NCBI RefSeq assembly: GCF_024502345.1
Contig: NZ_JALDNN010000003.1
Length of the DNA stretch: 64,000 bases
Origin: Escherichia coli
Lineage (GTDB): Bacteria; Pseudomonadota; Gammaproteobacteria; Enterobacterales; Enterobacteriaceae
Direction: 5' to 3' (one strand)
The first letter of the stretch is position 1, and every line of letters starts with the position of its first letter. Of the stretch, positions 12,415 to 43,596 are shown one piece after another. A program made the position numbers and the translations under genes. A model generated the notes under the pieces. The model ran no database searches and was not told the DNA's origin. It was given only the letters and a program-made list of their open reading frames with translations.

Positions 12415-12433
12415 GGCAAGCTAATGAAATAAC

Positions 12434-12469
12434 AGCCGGGGCAGAAATGTCCCGGCTTTTTTGTTTTTC
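12434..12469 (+). terminator. Rho-independent terminator after the large secreted protein gene
   Basis: Stem AGCCGGG-gcagaaatgt-CCCGGCT followed by a T-run. Confidence 0.55.
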
Positions 12470-22354: not shown

Positions 22355-23230
22355 ATGTCTAAAAGTAAAGCACGCAGTAAAGCTCTTCTCATCGCCTTCG
22401 CTGATCTGATCCCAGATATGGATAAGGTGGTTAACAAGAAGTTATTGGATTCTCTGAATGTTTATTCAGGGCATGATAATGACCTTATTGTTATTATGAA
22501 TGAAGATGGTCCAACCATAATTGAACTGAATTCTTTGAAATCAGTTTCAATGCTGGCTCAAAAGCTTTCTGCTTTTTCTACTTATTATCATGTGGAAATG
22601 CAGCAAATTCTTGTCAATCCAATTGACTTTGAGAAAGCTTACACACTTCTCAAAGAAGCACCTGCAATTCCAATGTTTAAAACTTTAGCCGATCTGGATA
22701 AGTTCTTAAATGAAGAGTTTGAAAAGTACGGGTTGAACACATTTCTTGATGTGGATAACCTTGATTATTCACTCGCTAAATCCAGAGAGTTAAAAAATGA
22801 TCAGTTGGTTGCCTGGGTTTCTGAAATTATTGAGAAGCGCGAGAAATTAGCATTGCGTAATCGATTTAATGAAGTGACCAAAGCACATTATGAAACTGTA
22901 GATGCAATGTATGCAGCCGTTCGCCCATTAATGAAAGAGTTAGGTTTTCCTGATGAACTCATGTTACACACCTTTAGTGAATTGAGCGTTTTCGATTCCA
23001 AAGGCTGGGATTATGCTATCAAGTCGAAAATTGAGTTTCTCACTAAACGCGAGGAGCAATGTTTAGATTATCAAATGAAAGCAGATAAACGGCAAGCGAC
23101 AGTTGATGAACTCTTGGCACAAATCAATAACGCTAAAACGGTAAAAGCACCAAGATCTTTTGGTCAGCTGTTTGGCTTTTCTGTTATTGCCATGATGACA
23201 TTTATGTTCATTGTAAACAAATTTATCTAA
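22355..23230 (+). CDS. Hypothetical protein with C-terminal transmembrane anchor
   Basis: 291-aa ORF, first gene of the long unidirectional block; hydrophobic C-terminus FGFSVIAMMTFMFIV. Confidence 0.4.
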   Translation: MSKSKARSKALLIAFADLIPDMDKVVNKKLLDSLNVYSGHDNDLIVIMNEDGPTIIELNSLKSVSMLAQKLSAFSTYYHVEMQQILVNPIDFEKAYTLLKEAPAIPMFKTLADLDKFLNEEFEKYGLNTFLDVDNLDYSLAKSRELKNDQLVAWVSEIIEKREKLALRNRFNEVTKAHYETVDAMYAAVRPLMKELGFPDELMLHTFSELSVFDSKGWDYAIKSKIEFLTKREEQCLDYQMKADKRQATVDELLAQINNAKTVKAPRSFGQLFGFSVIAMMTFMFIVNKFI

Positions 23231-23288
23231 TCCTGTTAAGGGGAAACCCTGACGGGGCTTCTCTTTGCTTAAATTGAGGAGAGAAGTA

Positions 23289-23666
23289 ATGTCATATCTT
23301 GAATATGTTAATGAAGTAAAAGTGTCCGGGATAGTTATCAGTGCAATGGAGAAAGAAATGACTAGCGGAAACGTTGGGTTATTGATAAAGCTCAAAAACA
23401 GAATGAAAACTGAAATTAATGGTGAAATTACTGAGAGAGAATTTTCGATTCAAATCAAAGTATCACCAGAGATGTATTCAGGCTGTTTCACTGGTATAAA
23501 TCAAGGTGATGAGTTAATGGTCTCCGGTTATCTTGTTGTGGATACCATCACATTGGAAGGGAGAGAGCATCCTCTTGACTACATGAGAGTAGTTGCAACA
23601 AGTAAGTTAGCTCACATACCTAAACCTCCTAAGGGTTTTGGGCAAAGTAGCTTTAGACAGATCTGA
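23289..23666 (+). CDS. Putative OB-fold single-stranded DNA-binding-like protein
   Basis: Pattern VKVSGIVIS...G..V.....L...G...V.GYLVV resembles the SSB/PriB OB-fold layout; weak, by-eye only; start chosen at the ATG following the RBS GAGGAGAG. Confidence 0.3.
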   Translation: MSYLEYVNEVKVSGIVISAMEKEMTSGNVGLLIKLKNRMKTEINGEITEREFSIQIKVSPEMYSGCFTGINQGDELMVSGYLVVDTITLEGREHPLDYMRVVATSKLAHIPKPPKGFGQSSFRQI

Positions 23667-23726
23667 CATTTAAACCACCCAAAAGGGGAGAAATCCCTTC
23701 ATGGGAGTTCTCCCTTAGGAGATCCC

Positions 23727-24713
23727 ATGAAACAAAAAATAAGGCCGACTGCATTTTGCAGTAAGCAAATGGATTTTTTCTCTATATTCGATTTTGAAGA
23801 AGAGGAAAAAGAAATAATAACTATAGTTGAGTCTCCACTTGACTATATAAATGATGCAATAGCCGCACAACAAAGTATTCAATCAGAAGATAAACATTCA
23901 GGCCCGGAACTGGAGCCTAGTGTGTCGGAAGATGTTGCTTTGCCTGGTAATTGTCCCAAACTACTCAAAAATCAAATTCTGCATGACATTAGTTTTGCTG
24001 CGGAAACTGATTATCTCTTCACTCTAGAAGAGTACAGTGCGGAGTTAGGTGGTCTGGTTTTTGACTGGGCCCCTGAAGATGTATATCAGTTATACGTCGT
24101 CGCAATGGAAGAGTCGTTGGAAAACGTAAGGCATCTCGTCATTACAAAATCACTCTATTCCACTGATGAATTCGGTAACATAACCGTGAATCCGCTTCTT
24201 GAAGCCGAAACACGGTGGTATATGTCGAAATCATTTGAGCTTACATGTGCCACTCATGGTATTGATGCTATTGAGTTCAGGTCAGAGCTTAAAAAAAGCT
24301 TATATGAATATACGCACAGTTACGGAGGTGAAAATGCTGAATTAGCTCGTTATCATCAAGATAAAGAGGTTATTCTGCATGATTGTAAGGAAGAGATGGG
24401 ATGGGATATCTTTTTCGAACAGGACTATTTGTTGCAAGAAAACAAACTGGCAATGAAATGGACTGATCGGGATATAATGGATGTCTATTCTAAAGTATTT
24501 AAATCAACAATTAATTTGTTTGAAAAACTTGTCGTTAATAACAAGTTAACCTCAAGAGATACTTTTGGTTGGGTAATCGTAAACCCTACATTTGAACGCC
24601 AGTTTGAATGGATTGAGTCAGAAGTATTCGAAATCGTAGGAACTCATCTTGGTTACAACGTTGCCGCTATCAGAACACAGATGGCGACGGCGTGTAGGAT
24701 GACTTTCCACTAA
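23727..24713 (+). CDS. Hypothetical protein
   Basis: 328-aa ORF preceded by a GC-rich leader hairpin; no motif recognised. Confidence 0.35.
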   Translation: MKQKIRPTAFCSKQMDFFSIFDFEEEEKEIITIVESPLDYINDAIAAQQSIQSEDKHSGPELEPSVSEDVALPGNCPKLLKNQILHDISFAAETDYLFTLEEYSAELGGLVFDWAPEDVYQLYVVAMEESLENVRHLVITKSLYSTDEFGNITVNPLLEAETRWYMSKSFELTCATHGIDAIEFRSELKKSLYEYTHSYGGENAELARYHQDKEVILHDCKEEMGWDIFFEQDYLLQENKLAMKWTDRDIMDVYSKVFKSTINLFEKLVVNNKLTSRDTFGWVIVNPTFERQFEWIESEVFEIVGTHLGYNVAAIRTQMATACRMTFH

Positions 24714-24772
24714 CATGCCACTGGCAAACATCTGCCAGCGGGCGGTGTTTGCATTTTACCGGAGTTTTAAAA

Positions 24773-25825
24773 ATGACTAACGCCGCAACTGTATTAAAAT
24801 CCGACAATTCCGTACAGGAAGAAATCATTGGTAATCTGTTACCCGCAAATGTTATATCAAGTAAGATGTTTGCGAATAAAGAACAGTATTATCTTGTCAA
24901 AGCAAAAGATTTATTTGGCATTCCTGAGATGGATGAGGATATGATTGTTCCAGTGTTTAAAAAGTTTTCTCCATATCGTGCGAATCTGAATAAGGACTAT
25001 ATACCAAATTCTCGAATACTTGAGCAAGTAGTAAAATTGCTTGTAAGTAACGATATAGATTTGAGTGTATGCCTGAAAGGAGAATCTGGATCAGGTAAGA
25101 CTGAAATGGCAATGTATATTAGCCATATGCTGAACTGGCCGCTAACCATAAAGCAAATCAACAGCAATATTCGCGCTGATGAGCTGGAAGGTGAGCGTAG
25201 TCTTATTAACGGTAACACCAGTTTTGTGCCTAGCGAGCTTGTAACGGCATTTCAGGAAGGCCACCTCATTCTTCTGGATGAAGTGGACAAGATTGACCCT
25301 GATACTGCCGCAAAGCTTCATATGCCTATAGAGCGAAAGCCCTGGTCACTAGCTGCCAACGGTGGCGAAGTGGTTAAGGCAAATAAGTTTACGCGATTTA
25401 TGGGTACTTCAAACACAAACATGAGTGGGGGATCTCGTAAGTTCGTTTCATCGCAGCGGCAGGATGCAGCGTTTATCAAGCGCTTCCTGATTGTGGAGAT
25501 GGAAAGGCCTTCAGAGGTTGCATTAACCAACGTTTTGCTTAAACGCTACAATAACCTGCCTATGCTGGTAATTGAAAAATTCGTTTCGGTAGCCGTTGCA
25601 GTAAACAACACAGGAACTGACGACAGTGTAATGGATATACGCCAGCTTGTGGCATGGGTTGGAACGTCAATGACGTTAAAGACCATGTCCTTACTGGATA
25701 CATTTAAAATTGCTTTTGCGTCGGCTCTGCCTGCACATGCCACTGGTATGGTGTTGGAAGCCATCGACTTAATTCTCGGTGACGACAAGAACCGTACAAT
25801 GGAGTATTACACTGCAAAAAAGTAG
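24773..25825 (+). CDS. AAA+ ATPase, CobS/MoxR-like (AAA_5-type)
   Basis: Walker A GESGSGKT and Walker B ILLDEVDK; size about 350 aa; start set at the ATG after a SD-like CCGGAG. Confidence 0.6.
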   Translation: MTNAATVLKSDNSVQEEIIGNLLPANVISSKMFANKEQYYLVKAKDLFGIPEMDEDMIVPVFKKFSPYRANLNKDYIPNSRILEQVVKLLVSNDIDLSVCLKGESGSGKTEMAMYISHMLNWPLTIKQINSNIRADELEGERSLINGNTSFVPSELVTAFQEGHLILLDEVDKIDPDTAAKLHMPIERKPWSLAANGGEVVKANKFTRFMGTSNTNMSGGSRKFVSSQRQDAAFIKRFLIVEMERPSEVALTNVLLKRYNNLPMLVIEKFVSVAVAVNNTGTDDSVMDIRQLVAWVGTSMTLKTMSLLDTFKIAFASALPAHATGMVLEAIDLILGDDKNRTMEYYTAKK

Positions 25826-25863
25826 TTATAGATGGGACGAGTTATCAGAAGGCTGAATGCCGT

Positions 25864-26133
25864 GTGACAGACTTTGCTCATCTTACGTTTTACGGTTTTC
25901 TGAGTGCAAACGGAACTGAAACTTTCGTGATTGCACAAGATGGAAATCAATATATAGGTCTGAAGCAGCATAATAATGACTATTCATTTATTTGTTATGA
26001 AGTCTGTAACAAAGATATGGAAGCCATGATTAAGGGCCTTGAATCAAAAGGATTCATGTATCAAGGGAGCATTCAATCGGCGGATGTCGAAAATGAATTT
26101 CCTGGAATTCTTTTAACAACACTTGAAAAGTAA
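25864..26133 (+). CDS. Small hypothetical protein
   Basis: 89-aa ORF between the AAA+ gene and the next gene. Confidence 0.3.
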   Translation: MTDFAHLTFYGFLSANGTETFVIAQDGNQYIGLKQHNNDYSFICYEVCNKDMEAMIKGLESKGFMYQGSIQSADVENEFPGILLTTLEK

Positions 26134-26203
26134 TATTATTAACCCTATCGGGAAATCTTTCCCGACGGGGAGGTTTTCCCATTTCTAAATCTGGAGAAAA
26201 CCT

Positions 26204-27331
26204 ATGACTTTCAATACTTCTAAACTTAATAAAGTTTCTGCAAAGGAAATCAGTGAAAACTTTATAAAAGCATATCCTGACTTGCAGAAAGGTGCTGTTA
26301 TAACAAAAATTGAAATTAGTGGGTGTCAGGGCTCTCGGCGAACTGATAAAATCGAACTGTCCTATGGCGGTGATGATATAACAGACCAGAAGAGCGTGTC
26401 TAAAAGCGAAGTTCGCTGGATAGACATAAAGGCACTGAGTTTCAAAAGCACTATCACTAGTCGAATTTCAACCCTTTGTTCACGGTTGTGCATCCGCTAT
26501 AGCAATATGTGGATACTGCCAGTTGAAAGGATGGAGGAGTTTCTCGAAGAGGCACAAGAAATCGAACGTGAATTTCAAGCCGGTATCCAGAACGTGGTTG
26601 ATAACTATGACACTCATATTCAGGCTGAGAAAGATCGCAGTCCGTTGATGTCAGATTTAATTGACCAGTTGAAATTGACTAAAGATGATTTTGTTAAATC
26701 ATTCCGGTTTAATCTGGCACATTTCATTCCGTTTTCACCGATTAGTGTGGAGGGGGATGAAACGCAGGACTTTTATCAAGAACAACTGATAACTGACTTG
26801 GCCGATGAAGCTATGAAGGTTTATACAAAAATCAGCAAAAATGATAATTTGCGTTCCAGCACGATTGACCGATTAAAGCAGATGCAGGATAAAATAATTA
26901 GCTTCATGTTCATTCATAAAGAGGCTGTTGTTCTTGCAGAAGCTATTAAGCATATCATGAATAATTTACCAAAAGGTGCCATTTCTTCTCCCCGTGATGT
27001 TGCGGTATTAAAGCAGTGGTTCTATTTCATGAGCGATGCGTCAATGCTGAAACGTATTATCTCCGGTGAACAAAAGGTAACCGACTGGCTGGATTCCATA
27101 ACCCGGTCATTCAATATCGATTCACAGGTTACAGCGGCTAACTCTCTGAATACTGCTGAGGATGATGTTTTTTCTTCAGCAAATGTTTTCAGAGAAGACC
27201 CGGTTGAAGATCTTGAGAACAAGGCAGTGAATGCACCTGAGCCTGCTGTTGGCCCTGATGAAGATGTTTCTATTCAGGCCAGTGGTAGTAATAGAGCATT
27301 TGACTGCGAACTCGAATTGACCGGTTGGTAA
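26204..27331 (+). CDS. Hypothetical protein associated with the AAA+/vWA pair (possibly the DUF3150-type partner seen with CobS/CobT-like pairs)
   Basis: 375-aa ORF located between the AAA+ ATPase and the vWA protein; family assignment is from recollection of gene-neighbourhoods, not a search. Confidence 0.35.
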   Translation: MTFNTSKLNKVSAKEISENFIKAYPDLQKGAVITKIEISGCQGSRRTDKIELSYGGDDITDQKSVSKSEVRWIDIKALSFKSTITSRISTLCSRLCIRYSNMWILPVERMEEFLEEAQEIEREFQAGIQNVVDNYDTHIQAEKDRSPLMSDLIDQLKLTKDDFVKSFRFNLAHFIPFSPISVEGDETQDFYQEQLITDLADEAMKVYTKISKNDNLRSSTIDRLKQMQDKIISFMFIHKEAVVLAEAIKHIMNNLPKGAISSPRDVAVLKQWFYFMSDASMLKRIISGEQKVTDWLDSITRSFNIDSQVTAANSLNTAEDDVFSSANVFREDPVEDLENKAVNAPEPAVGPDEDVSIQASGSNRAFDCELELTGW

Positions 27332-27408
27332 TTTAGTCTTGTAAAAATATCCCCAGATGGGTACTTCACCATCTGGGTGAGTACCCTTTATCAAATAAAG
27401 GTACTCAA

Positions 27409-29421
27409 ATGAAATTTGATTTAAAATCTTCACCACGCCATATTCAACGCCTGACGAATATAGCCAGCGTGATAAGCGGTATAAATGGGATTTATGTAAT
27501 TATTGACAATAAGGTGAGTACACCTTATTTCAACACCCAAAACAATGTCTGTGTTTTACCTAACGGTGATTATAGCGATGAGAGATTTGTCAAGCTAATT
27601 GAAGGATTCATATGTCATGAAGCAGGACACGGTCGTTATACAGAGCATGAAGTATACCGTGAAGCTTTTGTTGGAGAATTGATCAATGCAGATGGCTTCA
27701 TCAGTATTGATGATGACTTGAAGGCTGATTTTCAAAACCTAAAACAAAAGCAAAAAGCATATGCTCGTGCTTGTCGACTAAAAGGACTTATTAATCTTTT
27801 TGATGATGTCCAGATGGAAGAGAAGACGGGTATTGATTATCAGGAGGCAAAAAAACGCCTCGCGGTGACTTATGCCTTGATGGTTGAAGCTGGGCGAATG
27901 ACGGTTGATATTTCTTCAACCCCTCAAAACCCGGTTCAGTTTATTGAAATGTACCTGCTTAATACATTGCGGGTTAACGTTCTCCAACAAGAAGGGCATA
28001 AAGAAACGCTTGACCCATTTTTCGATTATGCAAAGAAAATCCTTGCACCTGTAACTTCAGAAGTCGATGAGATCATTCATCAAGCTCTAAGTTGCAAAAG
28101 TACGCAAAATTGCGATTCTCTGGCGCGTAAAACTCTGGCTCTTTTAGAGCGTTTAAGGGATGAAGCAAAAGAGAAACAGCAAGAAGAGGAGCAGTCGAAA
28201 GACCCGCATGACGATACAGATGAATCATCTGGCTCTGAGAATGAACCTGATACCGAACCCAATGGTGATAGCCAGGGTGAAGGGGATGGTGATAAAGAAG
28301 GTCAAGGCGATGATTCTGGTGATGGTAAGGCGCCTGCGGAAGGTAATGGGTTACCGGACCAATCCGGAGGGGATGAACAAAATGCTGAGAACTCTAACGG
28401 CGAACCTGATGGTGAGTCTGAAGGTGATGAATCGGCGACCCCCGGCTCGGATGATGCTGACTCGACACCTTCCCTAAACGACAGTTCAAATGGAAATTCT
28501 TCTGATGGGGAAAGTAACTTTTCTCCTGAACAGTGGGATATGCTTGCCAAATTGCTGGATGATTTTTTAAACAGTGATGAGGAAAGCGAGGATTTTCATG
28601 AGGTTCTTGCAAAAGAGATCTCCGTAATTGCTGCCAGTGTGTCGGATGAGGTTAAAGCTGAATTTGGTGCAAGTGAGTGGGATGTTCCAGATTTGAACAT
28701 TGATCTGAATGTCTACAATGAAGCATTAAATATCAGCCAGACCCTTGGGGCAGATTTATCTGTTTTACAGCAGGTAAAAATGCGTGGTCAATTTAAAACC
28801 CGTGATAGAGGCTTGTCATTCGATATTAATCGACTGATCCAGTCTCCGATGGGTGTTAGGGATGTATTTCGGTCACAAAGCGAATCTAAAAACCGGGGCC
28901 ACGTCGGCTTGGTCATTGTTCGTGATATTTCAGGTTCAATGAGTCTGGAACACCGTTATATCCATGCAATTAAGACTGACCTTGCATTAACTCTGGCAAT
29001 TGAAGCTATTTCAAAAATGCATGTTGCTAATGTGATTTATCCGTTTGTAGACAAAGATTTTGAAGTTATCAAAACGTTTGATGAAAACGCGGAAGAGAAA
29101 CTTTCAAAATTCTCACTTGGCTGCAAGGGCAATAATACCCCAACGGGTTCTGCATTAAATGCTGCTTTAGAGTTGTTACTTGAAAGCCAGTTTGACAGGA
29201 AAATTGTTTTCCTTATTACTGATGGTTATCCGACTGAGTCGGCTTACACCATTAATGATGTTTTTTCAGTTGCTGAAAGTAACGGCATTGAAATCGCTGG
29301 TGTTGGTATTAAAACTGATGTGTTGATGGGTTTTAATGAGGGCACCTTCGTAAATGTTGATGATATTTCTTTATTGCCGAATGAGGTCAGTAAATTAGTA
29401 CATCAAATTCTATCTAATTAA
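27409..29421 (+). CDS. vWA-domain protein with long acidic linker (CobT-like partner of the AAA+ ATPase)
   Basis: C-terminal MIDAS-like motif VIVRDISGSMS followed by FLITDGYPTE; a central D/E/G/S-rich low-complexity region of roughly 120 aa. Confidence 0.55.
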   Translation: MKFDLKSSPRHIQRLTNIASVISGINGIYVIIDNKVSTPYFNTQNNVCVLPNGDYSDERFVKLIEGFICHEAGHGRYTEHEVYREAFVGELINADGFISIDDDLKADFQNLKQKQKAYARACRLKGLINLFDDVQMEEKTGIDYQEAKKRLAVTYALMVEAGRMTVDISSTPQNPVQFIEMYLLNTLRVNVLQQEGHKETLDPFFDYAKKILAPVTSEVDEIIHQALSCKSTQNCDSLARKTLALLERLRDEAKEKQQEEEQSKDPHDDTDESSGSENEPDTEPNGDSQGEGDGDKEGQGDDSGDGKAPAEGNGLPDQSGGDEQNAENSNGEPDGESEGDESATPGSDDADSTPSLNDSSNGNSSDGESNFSPEQWDMLAKLLDDFLNSDEESEDFHEVLAKEISVIAASVSDEVKAEFGASEWDVPDLNIDLNVYNEALNISQTLGADLSVLQQVKMRGQFKTRDRGLSFDINRLIQSPMGVRDVFRSQSESKNRGHVGLVIVRDISGSMSLEHRYIHAIKTDLALTLAIEAISKMHVANVIYPFVDKDFEVIKTFDENAEEKLSKFSLGCKGNNTPTGSALNAALELLLESQFDRKIVFLITDGYPTESAYTINDVFSVAESNGIEIAGVGIKTDVLMGFNEGTFVNVDDISLLPNEVSKLVHQILSN

Positions 29422-29492
29422 ACTCTACCCAATCGGGGCAAAACGACGCCCGGTTGGGTCGCTTTGCTCCCTGAAGGATTAAGGAGCAATAT

Positions 29493-29714
29493 ATGACTCA
29501 GATAAAGACTTACCGTGTCGAGTATGAAAAAGTCGGGACGATGCATCGTGTCCGTATTTTTGGTCGCATGGGTGAAATTGTCAAAAGTGAATTGCCAGAA
29601 GAAAGAATTCTCCGGGATGTATCTATACCAGAGGGTAATGGAGAAATGGCAACGTCAATGGTTGATGGTTTTATCCAGCGTCTTGAAAATATCGGCTTCA
29701 AGACTGAAGCGTAA
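29493..29714 (+). CDS. Small hypothetical protein
   Basis: 73-aa ORF with a leader hairpin and an SD-sequestering hairpin upstream. Confidence 0.3.
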   Translation: MTQIKTYRVEYEKVGTMHRVRIFGRMGEIVKSELPEERILRDVSIPEGNGEMATSMVDGFIQRLENIGFKTEA

Positions 29715-29807
29715 TTGTTGAGGGCTCTTGTGGGCCCTCATTCTTAGATTCTGCGTTGTGGGTTTCTCCCTGTTTTCTGCATCGCAGAGGGCATTGAGAA
29801 ACCCACA

Positions 29808-31061
29808 ATGCCAGATAAGAGAGAACAAATGACTTATGCATCCCAGGCTGTTAAGCGTACACCACATGAAGTCACTGACCACTTTATAAAAATGGTTCAC
29901 GCTCGTATAGCGGAAGTATCAGGCTGGCGCTATGTATTCGATAGAATACCGGCATTTAAAGACGCTTGTGATAAAGCACCTGGCCAGGTTCCTTGCCCAT
30001 TTAGTGGGGTCGGGAAATCAAAGTTCCGGTTCCGTAAAAAGGACCTCTTTACCGGTTGTGCCATTCACAATGATTTTCCAGTGAATGCATTTTGTGACGG
30101 TATTGATGTATTGGCAGAGTACTACAAGCTGAGCAAGACCCAGACTTGTAAGAAGATCCTGACTGATTTCTTTGGGATGGATTTGTACGCTCCATTAACT
30201 GATGCGGATCTCGAAAGTGAACGTCGTTATAAATCAACAGTTCGTGCAACCGAAACGCTTGACAGCGATGAAGTTGAAAAACGAGGGCGTAAACTTGAAG
30301 TGATATATCACTATACCGGTGAAATCAAACCTGAGAGCCCTGTGTGGGTGTATCTCCGAAATCGAGGTCTTAATCGAGTTCTGAGCAACCTTCCCAAGGA
30401 TTTAGGTCTGAACAAACGACTTTACTACATGGATAAGTCACTGGAAAAACCCACGATTTACCCGGGAATGATCGCAATTTATCGCGATACCCGTGGGCGT
30501 CCTCTGACAATCCACAGAACGTTCGTCGAGTTAAATGGTGATAAGGCACATGTTGAGAATCCGAAACTGATGATGAAACCGCCTGCCGATATGACTGGCG
30601 GCTCAATTCAGCTGTACGATCCACACTTCAATCCAGGTACCCGTACCTGGACGTTAGGTGTGGCTGAAGGCATAGAAAACGCGCTGTCAGTTACTGAAGC
30701 GACTTCAACACCGTGCTGGGCCGCGAGCTCTGCCTGGTGCCTTGAAAACGTTGAAGTGCCGGATAGTCTCCTGCCTCCCCCTGGTGTGAAAGTAATACAG
30801 TTTTACATCTGGGCGGATAAGGATCTTGTGAATACAAAAGGCACTTCCCCGGGAATGGAGTCAGCTAAACGACTTCAGGAACGTATGAAAGAGTTTTTTG
30901 CAAAGCGATATCCCACTTCAGAGCTGACAATTAAAGTCTTTGAACCTGATTTCGATATTCCTGTAGGGAAGAAAGGAGTCGACTGGAACGATGTACTAAA
31001 ATTAACAGGACCGGATGGATTCCCCGTAAAATGGGCTCCTGAATGTCTTGCTCAGCTTTAA
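29808..31061 (+). CDS. Toprim-domain DNA primase-like protein with N-terminal zinc-binding region
   Basis: Cys/His cluster PCPFSGVGKSKF...TGCAIHNDFPVNAFCDG, a Toprim-like acidic motif TLGVAEGIENALSV and a downstream WADKD segment. Confidence 0.55.
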   Translation: MPDKREQMTYASQAVKRTPHEVTDHFIKMVHARIAEVSGWRYVFDRIPAFKDACDKAPGQVPCPFSGVGKSKFRFRKKDLFTGCAIHNDFPVNAFCDGIDVLAEYYKLSKTQTCKKILTDFFGMDLYAPLTDADLESERRYKSTVRATETLDSDEVEKRGRKLEVIYHYTGEIKPESPVWVYLRNRGLNRVLSNLPKDLGLNKRLYYMDKSLEKPTIYPGMIAIYRDTRGRPLTIHRTFVELNGDKAHVENPKLMMKPPADMTGGSIQLYDPHFNPGTRTWTLGVAEGIENALSVTEATSTPCWAASSAWCLENVEVPDSLLPPPGVKVIQFYIWADKDLVNTKGTSPGMESAKRLQERMKEFFAKRYPTSELTIKVFEPDFDIPVGKKGVDWNDVLKLTGPDGFPVKWAPECLAQL

Positions 31062-31335
31062 ATCCGATAACTCCCCCGCCTTTTCAGGCCGGGGGGGGTT
31101 ATCTCTTTAGTGTTTATTTACGTTAAATCCTAAACAGATAATCCGATTTCCTTCGTGAAAATCACCTGTTATTCAGGTTTTTTTTACGGCTGAGATGCTT
31201 GCTCAGTTTAATAAATGTGCGATACAGCTGGCTACGGTCGGTTGTATGACATGGTATATCCATAAAACTTAAAACCCCTGACGGGAGTATTACCGTTAGG
31301 GTGATGCTCATCGTTAAATATCGGAGAGCATTGTT

Positions 31336-31860
31336 ATGAATATTGAAAATCAAGATTTATTTAATACGTTCGCTGCTGTGATTTCATCTCATATCGTTGA
31401 GCAACCATCTTCGTGTTATTACCTTCATGATAATGAAATTGACTTCACGATTTTAAAACACAGCATAATAGATAAAGACAAAAACCTGTTGTACGTTATT
31501 CGTCCTTCAGGAACCTGTTTGTTGCGTTGTGATAAATACTTCTTTCCGAATTACTATCTTACAAGTCGTGGAGATTATAAAGCATTTAAGTATGTGCATT
31601 TTAATCTTGCAACACGAGAAGCGGAAGAAATCACCTGGCAGCAAGCTTTTGAAATTTTGTCCAAGCCGGGAAGACCTCCATTAAGAGGTTCACTTGGTAA
31701 ATTTGATTATTTAAAACTTGTTATTGATGATCTTCGTGCGCGAGGGTATGCCGATTTCCTTCCAGCATACAACCTTGATGGCCTTCGTCACTTTGCAGTA
31801 AAGGATGAGCGACCATCACTTGTCAGTTATATCGACAATGTCATGGCACTTTGCGCATAA
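31336..31860 (+). CDS. Hypothetical protein
   Basis: 174-aa ORF preceded by a leader hairpin. Confidence 0.35.
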   Translation: MNIENQDLFNTFAAVISSHIVEQPSSCYYLHDNEIDFTILKHSIIDKDKNLLYVIRPSGTCLLRCDKYFFPNYYLTSRGDYKAFKYVHFNLATREAEEITWQQAFEILSKPGRPPLRGSLGKFDYLKLVIDDLRARGYADFLPAYNLDGLRHFAVKDERPSLVSYIDNVMALCA

Positions 31861-31937
31861 AGATAACACATATTTTTACTACATCCCTGATGGCACCTCC
31901 CATCGGGGTGGCCCTCAGAGTTGAATCTGGAGGTCTT

Positions 31938-32816
31938 ATGAAATTAGCTACAGATCTGGTCAATGCGGTTCTGATAAAGAATGGCATTGTACCAACTTCC
32001 ATTAATGAGTTGCCTGTAACGTCGCTGGTAAAGCCATTGACACAAGTGCATCTCAGCCTGTATCTGAAAACAACGCATTTATCTCAGTTCGTCCCTGACT
32101 ACGTTGAGTCTCTGAAAGATTGTCCGGTTTCGTATGATATCGGCCTTGAACTTCAGCAGTGTATCAACAGTGCTGAATTGCTCTGTGAAGACATGGAGTC
32201 ACTTGAGTTTATCTCTGTATGGATAGAGCTCTATACGTGTAATTCAAAGCAACAGCGGTTTGAGAAAAGTAACTTTTCTTTTCGAACTGAAGATATCGAG
32301 CTGGCTAAGATGCTGTCTTGCTCGCATGAAATCTTAATAAGTCAGGCGGCTTGTTTCTGGCTTTTGTATTTTGAAGATTTCATGAAATATGTTCGTAATA
32401 GGCTCTGTGCATTACTCAGACAGGTTTTAATTTTGATTGCAGGACTGCGAAATGTATACCTGCAACGGAATGAAGATCAGTTGATTAAGAGAGTTAAGCA
32501 CGGGAATGAAATGCTGGAGGTGACTCTTAAAGCTGTTGCACTATGTTCAATGGAAAGGTATCTGAAATCATATGCCTCTTTACGAACAGAAGCGGCGGCT
32601 TCTGGGTTTATCAAATGCATTCAGTCTTATATCAGTACTGGTTGGAGACATGGCTATATAGTCTGTCAATATTCAAAAAATGGACGGTCTCTTGGTAAGT
32701 CATTACCACTTTTTATAAAAGAGACATCTGAGCATAATATACAGAAACGTGTCAATCGCCTTATATCTTCCACGATTTCGGGGCGAAATAAAGATTTAGG
32801 TCTTTACGATTTCTGA
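31938..32816 (+). CDS. Member 1 of a tandem five-gene paralog family, unknown function
   Basis: Shares the N-terminal pattern (L/I)(V/I)xA(V/F/M)L and the size class with the four following genes; start set at the ATG after the SD CTGGAGG. Confidence 0.45.
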   Translation: MKLATDLVNAVLIKNGIVPTSINELPVTSLVKPLTQVHLSLYLKTTHLSQFVPDYVESLKDCPVSYDIGLELQQCINSAELLCEDMESLEFISVWIELYTCNSKQQRFEKSNFSFRTEDIELAKMLSCSHEILISQAACFWLLYFEDFMKYVRNRLCALLRQVLILIAGLRNVYLQRNEDQLIKRVKHGNEMLEVTLKAVALCSMERYLKSYASLRTEAAASGFIKCIQSYISTGWRHGYIVCQYSKNGRSLGKSLPLFIKETSEHNIQKRVNRLISSTISGRNKDLGLYDF

Positions 32817-32832
32817 TTAACATTACCCATCC

Positions 32833-32869
32833 GGGGATTACATCCCTGATGGGTGTAATCCCATTTTTT
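32833..32869 (+). terminator. Intercistronic hairpin with U-run between paralogs 1 and 2 (attenuator-like; an alternative pairing is possible)
   Basis: GGGGATTACA (32833-32842) pairs with TGTAATCCC (32854-32862) and is followed by T6; alternatively CCCATC (32826-32831) pairs with GATGGG (32848-32853). Confidence 0.45.
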
Positions 32870-32886
32870 ATTTAAGTGAGGATTAC

Positions 32887-33822
32887 ATGAAAATTATTGA
32901 GAAAATCATTAATGCATTTCTGATATCGCGTAAACATTCAGTGAAGGTCAGTAATGTTATCTGCTTGAGTGGCACCGACGGTAAATTTACTGGAATATGC
33001 TGTGACGCCGATGTTTCATTTGATTTTCTTTATTCGTATGCCCCCGCATACAGTTCAACATTTTTAGATATCCCGTTTCCTGGGTTTGAAGACCAGGACA
33101 TCGCGGATTGTGTTAAATGTCAGTTAGATGTAGTTAAAAATAAACGGAATCGGTCTTTTTTAATTGACCATATTAGATTTCCAGTTTCCTCAAGGGAAGG
33201 ATTCACTCTGACACGCGGTGATAGTTACGACGTGACTGAATGTGAATATAATAAGGAACGATTGCTACATCTGACCCGACAAGGACGTTTTTGTGAAGAC
33301 TATCTCACGTTCAAGGATGGCCTGAGTTCCTTCTTTTCATTTGTGAATTTCGAATTACATGAAATAGTGAAGGAAGGTATACGTTTGGCACTTGATGTTT
33401 TAAACAAGATTACATCTGATCAACCAGACCGTCTTATAAAAGACTTTAAGTATCATGATTGCTTCGGCAGTTATAATGTACAAATATTTTCTAAGGGTCT
33501 GCCAGTTGATATCCTTGAAACGATGATTGCACCTGATAGGTTGTTGTCTAACTTGTCAGGTAGTCGTCAGATTATGAAAAATGCAAGTCGCTATCTTAAA
33601 GGCTTTGCCCTCAGTAATCGTGTTTACATGAAATACGGATGGCGTTTAGCAGATGTTGACACATCTGACTATGCGAAAGTTATGTCAGATAGAGAAATGC
33701 ATGCCAGAGATGATCTTAAGGCGTTTTGCAGTGTCTTTTTTAAAGAGTGTTTCGCATCCGGAAAATATGAATACGAAGCATACCTGAGTGAAAGACAACA
33801 CGCGATTCGTAACGGGTATTAA
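32887..33822 (+). CDS. Member 2 of the tandem paralog family
   Basis: N-terminus MKIIEKIINAFL parallels MKAIYKIIEAML of member 3; the C-terminal segment NASRYLKGFALSNRVYMKYGW parallels NHVNRYLSGRVMKRRIYAVIEA. Confidence 0.45.
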   Translation: MKIIEKIINAFLISRKHSVKVSNVICLSGTDGKFTGICCDADVSFDFLYSYAPAYSSTFLDIPFPGFEDQDIADCVKCQLDVVKNKRNRSFLIDHIRFPVSSREGFTLTRGDSYDVTECEYNKERLLHLTRQGRFCEDYLTFKDGLSSFFSFVNFELHEIVKEGIRLALDVLNKITSDQPDRLIKDFKYHDCFGSYNVQIFSKGLPVDILETMIAPDRLLSNLSGSRQIMKNASRYLKGFALSNRVYMKYGWRLADVDTSDYAKVMSDREMHARDDLKAFCSVFFKECFASGKYEYEAYLSERQHAIRNGY

Positions 33823-33899
33823 TACTTATTATCAACTTATCTAATCCCTGAGGGAATTCTTCCCTTGGAGAGGATTCCCTCTTAACCGAGGGCTACAAA

Positions 33900-34820
33900 A
33901 TGAAAGCGATTTATAAAATAATTGAAGCGATGCTGGTGAAAATGGGCTTTGAAGGTGCCGTGATCCAAAGTGTCAATCTGGAAACGGGTGTGATTCAGAG
34001 TCTAGTTGTTAAGGCTGATATTCCTGTCCGGACTTTAATGCCGCATTTAAGGCGATATCTGCGCGATTGTGAGCCTTTATGGGGACATGACGTGGATTAC
34101 CACCCTATAGCACAATATTGCTCAGGAGCTGCGTTGTTGAAGGCTGGGCCGGTCACTCTTGAAACCTTTCGGTTTGAGGTTTCAGTGTCAACTGCTCACC
34201 TGCGGCTTGTGGATATTGAGCCGGACTGTCTAAATGAGGGTGTGAACCGTGAAAAACTGGAGTATGTATATTACCGCTCCAGCAATGCAGACAAGGATCT
34301 AATACTTGGTATGGTTGAAAAAGGACATAATTTTATCAATCATCTGCATGAACTTTTACGCTCGCGCTTATCAACGGCTTTGCCGCTGATTTTCGCAGTT
34401 ACAGAAAAGATTGCGGAGAGTTCAGTTCCACAAGTAGTCACCAGCTTTTTCAGTGTTGACCATCAAATCAATGCCCAGATAGTAGTCGAACCTGTACCCG
34501 TTTCAGTCGCAGACCAGATAATTTCTGCTGACTGGAATGTGTGTAGTGTTTCAGGAGCGGATAAGTTCCTGAACCATGTTAATCGTTATCTGTCGGGTAG
34601 GGTGATGAAGCGGCGTATTTACGCTGTTATAGAAGCTTGCGACGGTGGATCTTTATCCCTCAATGCGAACTTAGGTTGCTTTACATCACCTCTTCTCGTA
34701 ACTGAGTATAAAATGGTTCAGTCACACTCTTCATCGCTTTATCGAAAGGCTATAAATAACTCGCTTAAGCAAGTTAATTCGTATGCTCCAGAGCATTCAG
34801 ATGACCTGCTTTCTATGTAA
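33900..34820 (+). CDS. Member 3 of the tandem paralog family
   Basis: See member 2; similar length of 306 aa. Confidence 0.45.
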   Translation: MKAIYKIIEAMLVKMGFEGAVIQSVNLETGVIQSLVVKADIPVRTLMPHLRRYLRDCEPLWGHDVDYHPIAQYCSGAALLKAGPVTLETFRFEVSVSTAHLRLVDIEPDCLNEGVNREKLEYVYYRSSNADKDLILGMVEKGHNFINHLHELLRSRLSTALPLIFAVTEKIAESSVPQVVTSFFSVDHQINAQIVVEPVPVSVADQIISADWNVCSVSGADKFLNHVNRYLSGRVMKRRIYAVIEACDGGSLSLNANLGCFTSPLLVTEYKMVQSHSSSLYRKAINNSLKQVNSYAPEHSDDLLSM

Positions 34821-34892
34821 TTAATTTTACCCATTGGGGAAGCGTATTCCCCGTGGGGGTTGCTTCCTTTCTTCATTAAAGAGGAAGTGAAT

Positions 34893-35828
34893 ATGTTTAA
34901 TGAAAGTGATGATAAAAACTTTGTTAGTGCAATGCTTAAATGTCAACTTGGCCTGAATATAAGCCAAGAGGATATTACAATATATGACAAAGAAAATCAT
35001 TTTGAACAACTTTCTTTTAAAGCAAATGTGGCGCTTGATGATTTGTTATTTTATCTGGATTTATATATATCAGAATTGATTAAGCATAATGCGCCGTATT
35101 CTGAAACTGAAGTCCTTCGGACTAAAATCAAATACTTTCTTAAAGTATATGAAAAGTCTGGTTTTCAGAACATAAGAATTCGCGGTTATCATAACGCGCA
35201 CAGCACTATAGATATTGTCGATATCGCATCATTAATATTGGCGGGGTCTGTACCGGAGTCTGAACATGATTCAATAGATCCTGTTTTAAGAAAGGAAATC
35301 TATCAAAATCGCATGAGTGTTGAGGGTAAAGTTCTCATTGCCCGTTTTGCACTTAAGCAATTTTTCCATTCTGATTTTGGTGATTTCATCTTAGAGTTCG
35401 AGAAAAGTATCTCCAAGTGTTTGAATACTTCTCTCCAGATAATTAAATCTGTAAAGAACTCATTTAACCGTTTAGGTCAATATCAATATCAGCGTCGTGT
35501 AAAAGATGACCTGACTTTGCATCTTGATTTGAATACAGATGAATACCCGGCCTGTATGCCAGACCTTTACATCGGTTTCAAGGAGTCTGAAGGGACGACG
35601 GGAGTGTATCGCGATGATGAAAAAATCATTCGTCTTTATACTGGCGTTAGTTCCGGAAAGGATGTTCCTGTAATGATGACCGTTCGATTCACTGGCTGTG
35701 ACGGGAGTGTTTTGTCTGAATCATCGCACGGTACTTTCTGTTCCGTGGGACCTACCGGCCGAGTGCAGGTTTGTGACAGAGTTGCGTTGGTCCAAGAAGC
35801 GGTCGAAGAGTTACGGGATGTTGTTTAA
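34893..35828 (+). CDS. Member 4 of the tandem paralog family
   Basis: Clear paralogy with member 5: VEGKVLIARFALKQFFHSDFGDFI versus VDGQVLIARFALEKFWDTHFIGLI, and YQRRVKDDLTLHLDL versus YTRRITDELSLHISL. Confidence 0.5.
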   Translation: MFNESDDKNFVSAMLKCQLGLNISQEDITIYDKENHFEQLSFKANVALDDLLFYLDLYISELIKHNAPYSETEVLRTKIKYFLKVYEKSGFQNIRIRGYHNAHSTIDIVDIASLILAGSVPESEHDSIDPVLRKEIYQNRMSVEGKVLIARFALKQFFHSDFGDFILEFEKSISKCLNTSLQIIKSVKNSFNRLGQYQYQRRVKDDLTLHLDLNTDEYPACMPDLYIGFKESEGTTGVYRDDEKIIRLYTGVSSGKDVPVMMTVRFTGCDGSVLSESSHGTFCSVGPTGRVQVCDRVALVQEAVEELRDVV

Positions 35829-36004
35829 CCCTTGTTTTTTACCTCTTCATTCCAAAAAGTAACTTTGTTCTACCAAATGACCGCGCTACCTATTCTGATC
35901 AACTTGCAGGAAAGAATGGCGCAGTAGTACATATTTTTAATCCACCCACTGGGGAAGTCGCTCCCCTGTGGGGCACTTCCTTTAATAATCCTGAGGAAGT
36001 GAAG

Positions 36005-36961
36005 ATGACTAATTCTACTGATAACCAGAACTACGTTCGTGCAGTACTGGCAGGCATTGGTATTGATTTTGATGAAACAGAGATGTTTATCAGTGTCTCT
36101 CATTGCCAGAGCGACGAAGTTTCGTTTACATGCAGTATATCAGCCAGTGAGTTAAGAGAATCTGCGGGGCATTATGTGGATACTCTTAATGATACCCAAC
36201 TGGCTGGCCTGGATGCGGATGCACTCAAGAAGCGACTGGTTTACTTCCTTGAGGTTTTCGACCTGGTTTCCGGTCAATATCTGGATATTTCCGGTAAACA
36301 TTTCGCGACCAGCCGCTTTGAATACGACGATGTCTGTAGTGAGATCCTGAGTAACTCTGCGGACAGCGCCCAGCCAGGTGGCTATGATCGTGAAGAGTAC
36401 AAAAGACTGATGGAAGTTGATGGTCAGGTTTTAATCGCCCGATTTGCACTGGAAAAATTCTGGGATACGCATTTTATTGGGCTTATCAACTATGTATCAG
36501 ATGAAATAACATCCGGGCTTTATGAGGCTTATCGCACGTTCAGTGATATAAACATGGCCGGTTATACATTTAGTGAGTATTCATATACGCGTCGTATTAC
36601 CGACGAACTTAGTTTGCATATTTCACTTAAAGAGGACGATTTCGAAGAGCAATTAACCGATTGTTATATGGATGAAACAACGCTGCCGTCTGGCAAGGTG
36701 GTTTTACGCCGTAATAATGAATCAATTATTGGGATTTATGAAGGATATGCTTCAAAATCTTACTTTCCTATGGTTGCTAATGTTAGAGTCCTTGATACAG
36801 ATGGTGAAGTTGTTACTGAACTTTACCAAGGGGTGAATGTATCAGAATTAGCTGGTGGTCGGATTAAAATCCATGACCGTCAGGAATTAATTTCTGAGGT
36901 GTTCGCTAACTTACGTGAATTCATCCCAGCATCAGAGGATAAAATCTTTGATGCGGCATGA
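36005..36961 (+). CDS. Member 5 of the tandem paralog family
   Basis: See member 4; start set at the ATG after the SD GAGGAAG. Confidence 0.5.
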   Translation: MTNSTDNQNYVRAVLAGIGIDFDETEMFISVSHCQSDEVSFTCSISASELRESAGHYVDTLNDTQLAGLDADALKKRLVYFLEVFDLVSGQYLDISGKHFATSRFEYDDVCSEILSNSADSAQPGGYDREEYKRLMEVDGQVLIARFALEKFWDTHFIGLINYVSDEITSGLYEAYRTFSDINMAGYTFSEYSYTRRITDELSLHISLKEDDFEEQLTDCYMDETTLPSGKVVLRRNNESIIGIYEGYASKSYFPMVANVRVLDTDGEVVTELYQGVNVSELAGGRIKIHDRQELISEVFANLREFIPASEDKIFDAA

Positions 36962-37005
36962 GTCCTGAAGGTTGAATTATATATTTTCAGGTTTTTATAC
37001 TTCTA

Positions 37006-37038
37006 AGAAGGCACGGTTATCCGTGCCTTTTTTTTTGC
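37006..37038 (+). terminator. Rho-independent terminator ending the paralog array
   Basis: AAGGCACGG-ttat-CCGTGCCTT followed by T9. Confidence 0.55.
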
Positions 37039-42526: not shown

Positions 42527-42739
42527 CCTTCGGCGGTACCCGCCCGTGAACTCTGCCGCAAGCATGCCATTTCCGATGCCACGTTTTACACCTGGCGTAA
42601 GAAGTATGGCGGTATGGAGGTGCCTGAAGTTAAGCGCCTGAAGTCGCTTGAGGAAGAGAACGCCAGACTCAAGAAGCTGCTTGCCGAAGCCATGCTGGAT
42701 AAAGAGGCGCTTCAGGTGGCTCTTGGGCGAAAGTACTGA
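42527..42739 (+). pseudogene. IS3-family orfA fragment (N-terminus missing)
   Basis: Frame translates to ...[65 protein letters not shown], i.e. the HTH and leucine-zipper portion of an IS3 OrfA, with no initiator codon. Confidence 0.5.
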
Positions 42740-42762
42740 CGACAGACCAGAAGCGGGAAGCC

Positions 42763-43596
42763 GTGATGTTGATGTGTGATGCGACCGGTCTGTCGCAACG
42801 TCGTGCCTGCAGGCTTACAGGTTTATCCCTGTCGACCTGCCGCTATGAGGCTCACCGTCCGGCTGCTGATGCGCATTTATCAGGGCGCATCACTGAGCTG
42901 GCACTGGAGCGCAGGCGTTTTGGCTACCGTCGTATTTGGCAGTTGCTGCGCCGTGAAGGGCTTCATGTTAATCATAAGCGCGTGTACCGGCTTTATCACC
43001 TCAGTGGCCTGAGCGTAAAACGCAGAAGACGTCGTAAAGGGCTGGCAACAGAACGTCTGCCGCTGCTCCGTCCGGCGGCGCCCAATCTGACCTGGTCGAT
43101 GGATTTCGTCATGGACGCACTTTCCACCGGTCGCAGGATCAAGTGTCTTACCTGCGTCGATGATTTCACAAAGGAATGCCTGACGGTCACTGTTGCCTTT
43201 GGGATTTCAGGCGTTCAGGTCACGCGTATTCTGGACAGCATTGCACTGTTTCGAGGCTATCCGGCGACGATAAGAACTGACCAGGGGCCGGAGTTCACTT
43301 GCCGTGCACTGGATCAATGGGCCTTTGAGCATGGTGTTGAGTTGCGCTTAATCCAGCCGGGCAAGCCAACGCAGAACGGATTTATTGAGAGCTTTAACGG
43401 ACGATTTCGCGATGAATGTTTGAATGAGCACTGGTTCAGCGATATCGTTCATGCCAGGAAAATTATTAATGACTGGCGGCAGGATTATAACGAATGCCGC
43501 CCGCACTCCACGCTGAATTATCAGACACCGTCTGAATTTGCAGCGGGCTGGAGAAAGGGTCATTCTGAGAATGAAGATTCCGACGTTACTAACTGA
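42763..43596 (+). CDS. IS3-family transposase OrfB (DDE integrase-like catalytic domain)
   Basis: Typical IS3 OrfB segments: [23 protein letters not shown] and [13 protein letters not shown]. Confidence 0.65.

Follow-up and report, generated by a model that had tools for sequence, protein, structure and literature searches.

We analyzed a 64,000-nucleotide (nt) stretch of Escherichia coli DNA (contig NZ_JALDNN010000003.1 of assembly GCF_024502345.1; called the window below) and, within it, a structured element in the 70-nt gap that separates two genes of unknown function, p1 and p2. The window is backbone of an IncHI1 plasmid of the R27/pHCM1 type. The upstream gene, p1 (31938-32816, plus strand), encodes 292 amino acids (aa) and ends with a TGA stop codon at 32814-32816, and the downstream gene, p2 (32887-33822, plus strand), starts with an ATG at 32887. 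They are the first members of an array, p1 to p5, that follows a gene designated g0, and no Pfam domain was found in p1 to p5 or in g0. Across 217 plasmids the 5.8-kb region shows at least 99% identity. A phage origin found no support, with no phage match for the region. An initial annotation had described the gap between "paralogs 1 and 2" as an attenuator-like element. The paralog label fits only loosely, since a BLASTP comparison of p1 with p2 gave an E value of 0.92, against 4e-8 for p2-p3 and 5e-39 for p4-p5.

The two alternative hairpins of the initial annotation are both present on the plus strand, where sequence reading and a repeat finder agree, and both are conserved and covary. In one, GGGATTACA (32834-42) pairs with TGTAATCCC (32854-62), as part of an inverted repeat, I1, at 32834-32845/32851-32862 (GGGATTACATCC/GGGTGTAATCCC, 92%). 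In the other, ACCCATC (32825-31) pairs with GATGGGT (32848-54) within a second inverted repeat, I2, at 32825-32835/32844-32854 (ACCCATCCGGG/CCCTGATGGGT, 91%). An A and then T6 (32864-69) lie directly 3' of the GGGATTACA/TGTAATCCC stem, as had been proposed. The arms are interleaved in the order 5'a-5'b-3'a-3'b, which bears out the claim that the stems are mutually exclusive, and they cannot coexist as a pseudoknot because the connecting loops would be 2, 4, and 0 nt in the standard H-type geometry; that candidate was rejected. The initial annotation missed a third partner. The sequence TGTAATCC (32854-61) is perfectly complementary to GGATTACA (32880-87), which is the Shine-Dalgarno (SD) site of p2 plus the first base of its start codon. 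The 5' arm repeats this SD region as a 9-nt direct repeat, GGATTACAT, at 32835 and 32880, and three of the four copies of GGATTACA in the window fall within this 54-nt stretch.

The element can be described as five plus-strand segments that form two folds. Segment 1 (ACCCATC, 32825-32831) is the outer 5' arm, or clamp, of a first hairpin, H1, and its partner is segment 3 (GATGGGT, 32848-32854), the outer 3' arm. Segment 2 (GGGGATTACA, 32833-32842) is an SD look-alike that forms an "address" inside H1; it can pair with segment 2' (ATCCC, 32842-46) or with segment 4 (TGTAATCCC, 32854-32862). Segment 4 is the anti-SD arm, with segment 5 as its other partner. Segment 5 (GAGGATTACATG, 32878-32889) contains the SD and start codon of p2, GAGGATTACA being the SD with the first start-codon base. 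In the closed fold (1:3, 2:2', and 4:5), H1 (32825-32854), of the type CCC-N-GGGG...CCC-N-GGG, is followed directly by a second hairpin, H2 (32855-32886), which masks the p2 SD and buries it together with the A of the p2 AUG. In the open fold, helix 2:4 encloses a small 2':3 stem, and segments 1 and 5 are unpaired. A U-rich tract of T6, A, and T3 (32864-32873) forms the tail of the open, terminator-like fold; in the closed one it contributes to both the loop and the stem of H2.

Folded with its downstream sequence, the RNA had H1+H2 with a paired SD as its minimum-free-energy structure, at -30.7 kcal/mol, compared with -19.5 kcal/mol for the terminator-like fold. The same -30.7 kcal/mol for the 86-nt region contrasts with -16.7 ± 3.0 kcal/mol for shuffled sequences (z = -4.6; 0 of 200 shuffles), and the 51-nt core gave a z of -3.4 against shuffles. 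H1+H2 was favored over the alternative by about 8.8 to 10.6 kcal/mol between 15 and 45°C, the barrier to refolding from open to closed was 10.8 kcal/mol, and the predicted probability that the SD is unpaired was 0.12 to 0.2.

We compared the p1-p2 junction, designated IG2, among ten distinct lineages. A blastn search aligned exactly 32745-32922 at 79% identity in about 1,100 IncHI2 plasmids and left the flanks unaligned, and sliding identity peaked at 75 to 88% over the site versus about 55 to 60% in flanking coding DNA. The RNAalifold consensus of the ten lineages, obtained independently, was H1+H2, which was paired in 93% of cells, and the H1 pair at columns 25:42 appears as CG, GU, AU, and GC. 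The 2:4 helix keeps eight of its nine pairs in all ten lineages. From IncHI1 to IncHI2, one position changes in three partners: U to C in segment 2 (GGATTAC to GGATCAC), A to G in segment 4 (GTAATCC to GTGATCC), and U to C in segment 5 (GGATTAC to GGATCAC). Other single changes are all tolerated as wobble pairs. The triple covariation alone is modest statistical evidence because there is one main compensatory event; as judged from the aligned sequences, both pairings of segment 4 are maintained. G·U pairs occur on the plus strand only, and a covariance model scored 13 bits on the minus strand versus 37 bits on the plus strand. These results indicate that the structured molecule is the sense RNA. 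Hairpins acting at the DNA level, such as a single-stranded DNA promoter or initiation site, were rejected on the same strand-specific G·U pairs and on the register of the element, which is tied to the SD and AUG.

The element at IG2 belongs to a repeated family. In each of the five gaps of the p1-p5 array (IG1 to IG5), a GC-rich hairpin is followed within 0 to 3 nt by a hairpin that uses the SD of the next gene as its 3' arm, and this two-hairpin fold holds in all lineages. A covariance model, R1, trained on junctions IG4 and IG5 only, detected the IG2 site (36.6 bits, E = 8e-8) in a match that spans the whole model and has the ATG at its end. The next R1 matches end on or within 3 nt of start codons of genes 5' of the array: before 26204, 27409, and 29493 (E = 9e-6 to 0.006), before 23289 and 23727 (E = 0.06), and before 31336 (E = 0.13, ending 3 nt short of the ATG). 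When gap folding and the model were combined, a module was present at 12 of 14 junctions from 23.2 to 36.0 kb, with none elsewhere in the 64 kb, and all copies are on the plus strand. The other modules of the array are IG1 before p1 (31885-31935; H1 31885-31908, H2 31910-31935), which is the minimum-free-energy fold and was not found by the model, IG3 before p3 (33843-33902; model E = 0.004), IG4 before p4 (34828-34895; H1 34830-57, H2 34860-90), and IG5 before p5 (35943-36007; H1 35945-72, H2 35974-36001). Those 5' of the array precede g0 (31276-31332; ATG at 31336), a gene for a 73-aa protein (29426-29495; ATG at 29493) and a VWA gene (27350-27411; ATG at 27409), a DUF3150 gene (26141-26206; ATG at 26204; E = 9e-6), and the genes at 23727 (23676-23729) and 23289 (23232-23291). 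A two-hairpin module before an AAA ATPase gene (24718-24761; ATG at 24773) was found by folding only. The start regions of 14 cluster genes had a mean folding energy of -28.6 kcal/mol, versus -13.2 kcal/mol for 28 other genes of the window (P = 5e-7), and the first cluster gene (22355) has an open start region.

A plasmid-wide dispersed palindrome of the REP or BIME kind was rejected as an explanation for these repeats, as the copies are confined to 23.2-36.0 kb, lie on the plus strand, and each end on a start codon. Rfam 15 at its gathering threshold gave no match at the junctions anywhere in the window, and a search of 31.0-37.3 kb at E values up to 5 returned nothing credible there. The only Rfam match in the window at the gathering threshold was to IS1222_FSE, a ribosomal frameshift element of IS3-family insertion sequences (42706-42823; 156.6 bits, E = 1.5e-32), which indicates an IS3-family insertion sequence around that position.

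R1 also matched corresponding positions in every other lineage. Outside the IncHI1 and IncHI2 plasmids, it matched in a Klebsiella IncHI1B/FIB plasmid without the p1-p5 array, whose DUF3150 protein is 41% identical, and in a Shewanella aestuarii plasmid (19.5% identity). In a family alignment of 25 matches, 17 of 22 pairs were changed on both sides, a number reached by 0 of 500 shuffles, although such counts are somewhat generous because a model-fitted alignment leans toward structure. The four CCC/GGG triplets of H1 are invariant, Shewanella included (CG in 23 to 25 of 25 sequences and GC in 24 of 25), while the middle pairs of H1 and H2 covary freely. The three-way arrangement recurs with different letters, with partners GGAAGC/GCTTCC/GGAAGT at IG4 and GGAAGT/ACTTCC/GGAAGT at IG5. 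At these two junctions the 2:4 helix covaries (UA in 11 sequences and CG in 5) and segment 5 keeps a wobble pair.

Because purine-rich arms are trivially complementary to pyrimidine-rich anti-SD strands, we compared cognate with mismatched combinations. The 5' half of each module's H1 was paired with its own anti-SD arm and with every mismatched one, and the difference was assessed by permutation. Cognate pairs were the more stable in all four groups: -9.75 versus -6.0 kcal/mol for ten modules of the IncHI1 window (P < 5e-5), -10.0 versus -4.7 kcal/mol for six IncHI2 modules (P = 0.0014), -9.6 versus -5.3 kcal/mol for five Klebsiella modules (P = 0.008), and -11.1 versus -7.0 kcal/mol for ten Shewanella modules (P < 5e-5). 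At -11.8 kcal/mol, the IG2 cognate pair outranked every other combination in its row and in its column of the pairing matrix. At the DUF3150 junction, the address differs between IncHI1 and Klebsiella and all three partners still match. Cognate specificity, together with this re-addressed orthologous junction, argues that the three-way design is a defining and deeply conserved feature of the family.

Two observations made in passing concern junctions of the same cluster. The gene encoding a toprim/DUF7146 protein has no module; it is preceded at 29715-29807 by a very long hairpin, GCGTTGTGGGTTTCTC...GAGAAACCCACAATGC, of -57 kcal/mol over 94 nt, which buries the start codon, and an equivalent design is found in the Klebsiella plasmid (NZ_CP040726.1, lineage L017) at 12368-12461. 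That plasmid has no p1-p5 array. Ahead of its g0 homologue, the module at 13712-13776 can form GGGAGAG/CTCTCCC as its alternative hairpin, again with T6 after it; this makes a second junction, other than IG2, with a terminator-like form.

Taking these results together, we interpret the element as a sense-strand mRNA switch for ribosome access to p2, one copy of a repeated intercistronic module, and we give this interpretation a probability of about 45%. The element most likely gates translation rather than transcription, and our modeling suggests that the trigger is probably the ribosome finishing the upstream gene. A ribosome completing p1 would stop at the TGA and weaken the 1:3 clamp of H1, with the greatest effect while the transcript is nascent and segment 5 has yet to be made. 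Segment 2 would then capture segment 4 and leave the SD open for seconds, time enough to load a ribosome; this lifetime is an estimate that follows from the refolding barrier of about 11 kcal/mol. If p1 were not translated, H1+H2 would form and p2 would stay silent. Repeated junction by junction, such a device could carry translation along the cluster, one gene after another, and could prevent the translation of spurious or partial transcripts. At IG2 the open-SD fold is also terminator-like, and some conditional termination may occur as a side effect.

The geometry of the junction and the folding models fit this order of events in several respects. H1 begins 11 nt past the first base of the p1 stop codon, a distance of 11 to 13 nt in 8 of the 10 IG2 lineages and up to 18 nt in the others, and at other junctions, some of them in other plasmids, H1 starts 3 to 14 nt after the stop. 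The leading edge of a terminating ribosome lies about 12 to 13 nt ahead by established footprint data, so the start of H1 at IG2, and the starts at 3 to 14 nt elsewhere, would fall at or inside that edge. On the nascent transcript of the window, a 13-nt block at the stop codon made 2:4 the best fold once segment 4 had emerged. Blocking segment 1 in silico raised the probability of an unpaired SD from 0.2 or less to 0.45-0.9 in many modules, which shows that segments 1 and 5 are thermodynamically linked.

Several results weigh against a relay by the upstream ribosome or against selection for it. In the full-length IG2 RNA, at least 20 nt had to be covered for the SD to open, more than the 12 to 13 nt of the ribosome, and a 13-nt footprint flipped the nascent RNA in only 4 of 10 lineages. 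Between the stop codon and H1 lie 23 to 115 nt at IG1, at IG5, and before 27409, which rules out an upstream ribosome as the trigger at every junction. The invariance of the CCC/GGG triplets could instead reflect recognition of H1 by a protein, and the 2:4 complementarity could partly reflect how the modules arose, by quasi-palindrome correction or copying between repeats, rather than selection. Given these weaknesses of the trigger modeling, a trans-acting factor and an absence of switching are both live rivals.

The initial annotation had proposed that the toggle is an attenuator that regulates read-through into the array, and had named a fall in RNA across the site as one check. Its hairpins are real, but we consider a conditional terminator an unlikely account of the main function. 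In that account, the 2:4 hairpin and the U run would stop RNA polymerase whenever H1, here the antiterminator, could not form; a ribosome on the p1 stop codon, for example, would block H1, and transcription into p2 to p5 would be tuned in this way. The site does look the part. It shares first place among terminator-like sites between 27 and 40 kb with 37005-37032, having 12 pairs, 6 of them GC, followed by ATTTTTTATT; the GGG:CCC base of its stem adjoins T6 (T7 in IncHI2); at least five of the eight nucleotides after the stem are U in 9 of 10 lineages; and when a ribosome covers 13 nt, the terminator fold becomes the preferred one for nascent RNA just while the polymerase is on the U run. However, H1 is transcribed first and, with no ribosome present, is the minimum-free-energy fold at every transcript length (-19 to -21 kcal/mol), and the terminator fold wins only when at least 13 nt after the stop codon are blocked. 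The longest U run across the ten lineages is 7, 6, 6, 5, 5, 5, 4, 3, 3, or 2; it falls to 2 or 3 in L007, L009, and L010, which keep the three-way complementarity, and most sister modules have no U run. The attenuator also leaves the covarying SD copy without a role, and in the preferred fold the strand that it takes as the 3' arm of the terminator is bound instead to the SD and start codon of p2. A short leader reading frame with regulatory codons, as in trp, was looked for upstream, where the open reading frame is instead the 292-aa gene.

Published R27 microarrays bear directly on the predicted fall in RNA. We mapped the genes by counting from rsp (R0009) through trhI, which makes p1 R0202 and p2 R0201; an off-by-one mapping would leave the conclusion unchanged. 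At 25°C, signals in the htdA mutant and the wild type were 5,679 and 49 for R0203 (g0), 2,740 and 27 for R0202 (p1), 3,378 and 32 for R0201 (p2), 6,669 and 129 for R0200 (p3), and 3,245 and 33 for R0199 (p4) (PMC7366339 supplement), coarse evidence in which probe intensities are only roughly comparable. The step from p1 to p2 is thus 2,740 to 3,378 in the mutant, and the signal is steady from p1 to p2 in the wild type as well, so no drop is seen at the site. What stands of the earlier proposal is the toggle itself and a U-rich tail in 9 of 10 lineages; termination and regulated read-through are not supported as its main function, and control of translation is favored instead. Weak, conditional termination at the U run is possible as a secondary role.

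Three further alternatives keep the structure and change the control. The structure may be static, with H2 setting a low, fixed level of translation, H1 shielding the mRNA by blocking decay or, once RNase E has cut in an AU-rich spacer, by serving as its 5'-terminal hairpin, and 2:4 being a by-product of how the hairpins originated. The closed fold is about 9 to 11 kcal/mol more stable at all temperatures tested, the modules stay beside the downstream start even when far from the upstream stop (IG5), and the spacer 5' of H1 is AU rich, all of which suit this view. We nonetheless think it improbable, as module-specific 2:4 complementarity is kept in four divergent lineages and also where the address has changed at orthologous junctions, segments 2, 4, and 5 covary together, and hardly any of the cluster would be translated if the SDs of 12 consecutive genes were permanently masked (about -11 kcal/mol). 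Alternatively, a protein of the cluster or host, or a small RNA, might read the invariant CCC-N3-4-GGG...CCC-N3-4-GGG form of H1 and set all junctions in trans. The triplets are invariant, even in Shewanella, while the middle pairs and H2 covary; such a trigger would be independent of the distance to the stop codon and would fit IG1 and IG5; and the cluster encodes several small proteins of unknown function. Yet no RNA-binding domain was found in cluster proteins, no extra copy or complement of the motif lies outside the modules in the 64-kb window, and the invariance could also come from triplets that pair with more than one partner across the two folds, which together make this control in trans a doubtful proposal. 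An RNA thermometer or kinetic temperature switch tied to the low-temperature expression of IncHI transfer genes might be expected from the induction of the cluster at 25°C under HtdA control and from SDs masked by hairpins. We rejected it as very improbable: the gap between the folds is nearly constant between 15 and 45°C, at -8.8 to -10.6 kcal/mol, the SD would be masked more tightly, not less, at the permissive low temperature, and there was no match to the Rfam thermometer families.

We also considered a relay through a leader mini-open reading frame (mini-ORF). The mini-ORF at 32849-32875, AUG GGU GUA AUC CCA UUU UUU AUU UAA (MGVIPFFI), runs from the 3' arm of H1 through the anti-SD arm, and all three differences between IncHI1 and IncHI2 in it are synonymous. 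It is in frame with p2 in L004, L005, and L009, and gene calling in L009 made it an 11-codon N-terminal extension (P0009, 322 aa). A relay using this AUG (32849), the stop at 32873-75, and segment 2 as its SD was rejected. The spacing from SD to AUG would be 11 to 13 nt, and the stop has no fixed position: it can fall in the loop, overlap the start, lie out of frame, or be in frame with p2. Several Shewanella modules have CAG, ACG, or UAG as the start triplet. The start and stop are not conserved, so the mini-ORF is not a feature of the family.

Other features of transcription in the region were recorded alongside these comparisons. A strong terminator-like hairpin followed by T9 (37005-37032, plus strand) closes the array after p5 and is a real unit end. 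The 274-nt gap between the toprim gene and g0 (31062-31335) is highly structured (about -111 kcal/mol over 300 nt) and has two terminator-like hairpins, at 31078-99 and at 31164-78 with T8. No stretch of the region is more conserved than the 3' half of this gap (31182-31340), where IncHI1 and IncHI2 share 82 to 95% identity. The signal of the toprim gene, R0204, was 15,984 in the mutant and 403 in the wild type and falls to g0 (PMC7366339 supplement). This drop in R27 (15,984 to 5,679) suggests that the gap is probably a real terminator with a restart or promoter region.

The flanking coding sequences have features of their own. The last ~55 nt of p1 (32758-32813) are unusually conserved at the DNA level, including a block, AATAAAGATTTAGGTCTT, that is almost invariant across lineages with ~50% identical proteins; RNAalifold predicts a pairing there of 32758-69 with 32791-801, and a consensus scan of this conserved 3' end for an internal promoter for p2 gave no match. 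The p2 protein is 52% identical between IncHI1 and IncHI2. Codons 4 to 13 of p2 may form a hairpin (32896-32924, ATTGAGAAAATC...ATTTCTGAT), in which a G-C pair becomes A-U in the IncHI2 clade by two synonymous substitutions. In an IncHI2-like lineage (L009, 4089-4838), p1 is truncated to 249 aa by a premature stop and the IG2 module 3' of it is intact. In R27 (L015, NC_002305.1, 166237-168529), an IS2 copy interrupts p5, the final gene of the array, and IS1, IS2, or IS903B insertions lie inside the 5.8-kb array in other plasmids, so the p1-p5 array appears to be dispensable. The genes 5' of the array (22355-31061) directly follow the transfer helicase gene trhI and resemble a set for DNA handling, with a weak SSB-like gene (23289, E = 0.09), an AAA ATPase gene, and DUF3150, VWA, and toprim/DUF7146 genes. 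Each of them is induced 38- to 116-fold at 25°C when htdA is mutated in R27. The Shewanella relative has a true ssb gene within the corresponding cluster.

Switches that combine a masked SD, an alternative pairing, and unmasking by a ribosome are well known. In the "RNA unfolding" model of translational coupling, for which an analogy to attenuation has been drawn, examples include MS2 coat-lysis, f1 gene VII-IX, and rpmI-rplT (reviewed in PMC12548453). The IG2 element resembles these in having the downstream SD and start buried in a hairpin; the downstream gene would likewise be silent unless the upstream gene is translated, which would tie the translation of neighbors. It differs in that the masking strand lies in the intergenic spacer, ~40 nt past the stop, and not inside the upstream open reading frame; a second hairpin with a cognate competitor would have to relay the signal; the spacing from stop to start, 58 to 78 nt, is long for coupling; and the device occurs at 12 of 14 junctions. 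Translational attenuation of the erm/cat type follows the same logic. In the ermC leader, a ribosome on the first segment allows a cross-pairing that frees the SD, so both systems set a first hairpin and an SD-masking second hairpin against an SD-freeing cross-pairing. In contrast to erm and cat, the plasmid element has no short leader peptide or drug-dependent stalling, its upstream reading frame is a full-length one of 292 aa, and hairpin 1 supplies the competitor from its 5' half and loop, not from its 3' arm.

Other comparisons come from plasmids and from trp. Gultyaev, Franch, and Gerdes reportedly inferred in 1997 the refolding of tac, anti-tac, and SD in the hok mRNA of plasmid R1 from coupled covariations. 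There, as at IG2, one strand with two exclusive partners decides access to the SD, and three-way covariation is the evidence; the hok trigger, however, is slow 3' trimming, and hok is a single-copy toxin gene and not a serial intercistronic module. In R1 tap-repA and in repY-repZ of IncB and IncI-alpha plasmids, a structure conceals the next gene's ribosome-binding site until an upstream frame is translated, and these systems share this translation-dependent unmasking with our model. Those rep leaders have a tiny leader reading frame that overlaps the structure, antisense RNA control, and, in IncB/I, a pseudoknot, none of which was seen here. Like a trp-type attenuator, the element has exclusive hairpins, one with a U run, and the place of a ribosome at a stop codon could decide which of them forms. 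Unlike trp, it lies in mid-operon after a full-length gene, has no regulatory codons, and has the terminator fold as the less stable one; the U run is not part of the design of the module family, and no drop in RNA is seen.

A literature search found no description of these hairpins or of the cluster. The element differs from the cases above in storing the competitor in a separate clamp hairpin, in bridging 58 to 78 nt, and in the serial use of the device at nearly every junction of a 14-kb cluster with an address for each copy. A further difference, by sequence comparison, is that IncHI plasmids and a Shewanella plasmid have the design in common.

Multidrug, mcr, and typhoid resistance are carried to a large extent by IncHI plasmids, whose transfer is temperature gated. 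The cluster was induced 38- to 116-fold along with the transfer genes upon loss of the repressor HtdA (R27 htdA mutant, 25°C). A conserved SD-masking module at nearly every junction points to an unrecognized layer of translational control in these plasmids. It may serve to prevent costly expression from spurious promoters in AT-rich, H-NS-silenced DNA, or to enforce ordered or equimolar synthesis. For operon engineering, one scaffold with many orthogonal addresses would couple translation over gaps of 60 to 80 nt, and ~40 natural variants are at hand. More tentatively than for the switch at IG2, we suggest that the modules are an undescribed, ancient family of serial intercistronic RNA relay switches, acting at 12 of 14 junctions either like dominoes or under license from a single factor. 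In each, a private cognate competitor would sit in the preceding CCC...GGG hairpin, a design shared by Klebsiella plasmids of the pNDM-MAR type and Shewanella megaplasmids. If this is true, the 14-kb cluster would be kept silent on spurious transcripts and could be switched at a single point.

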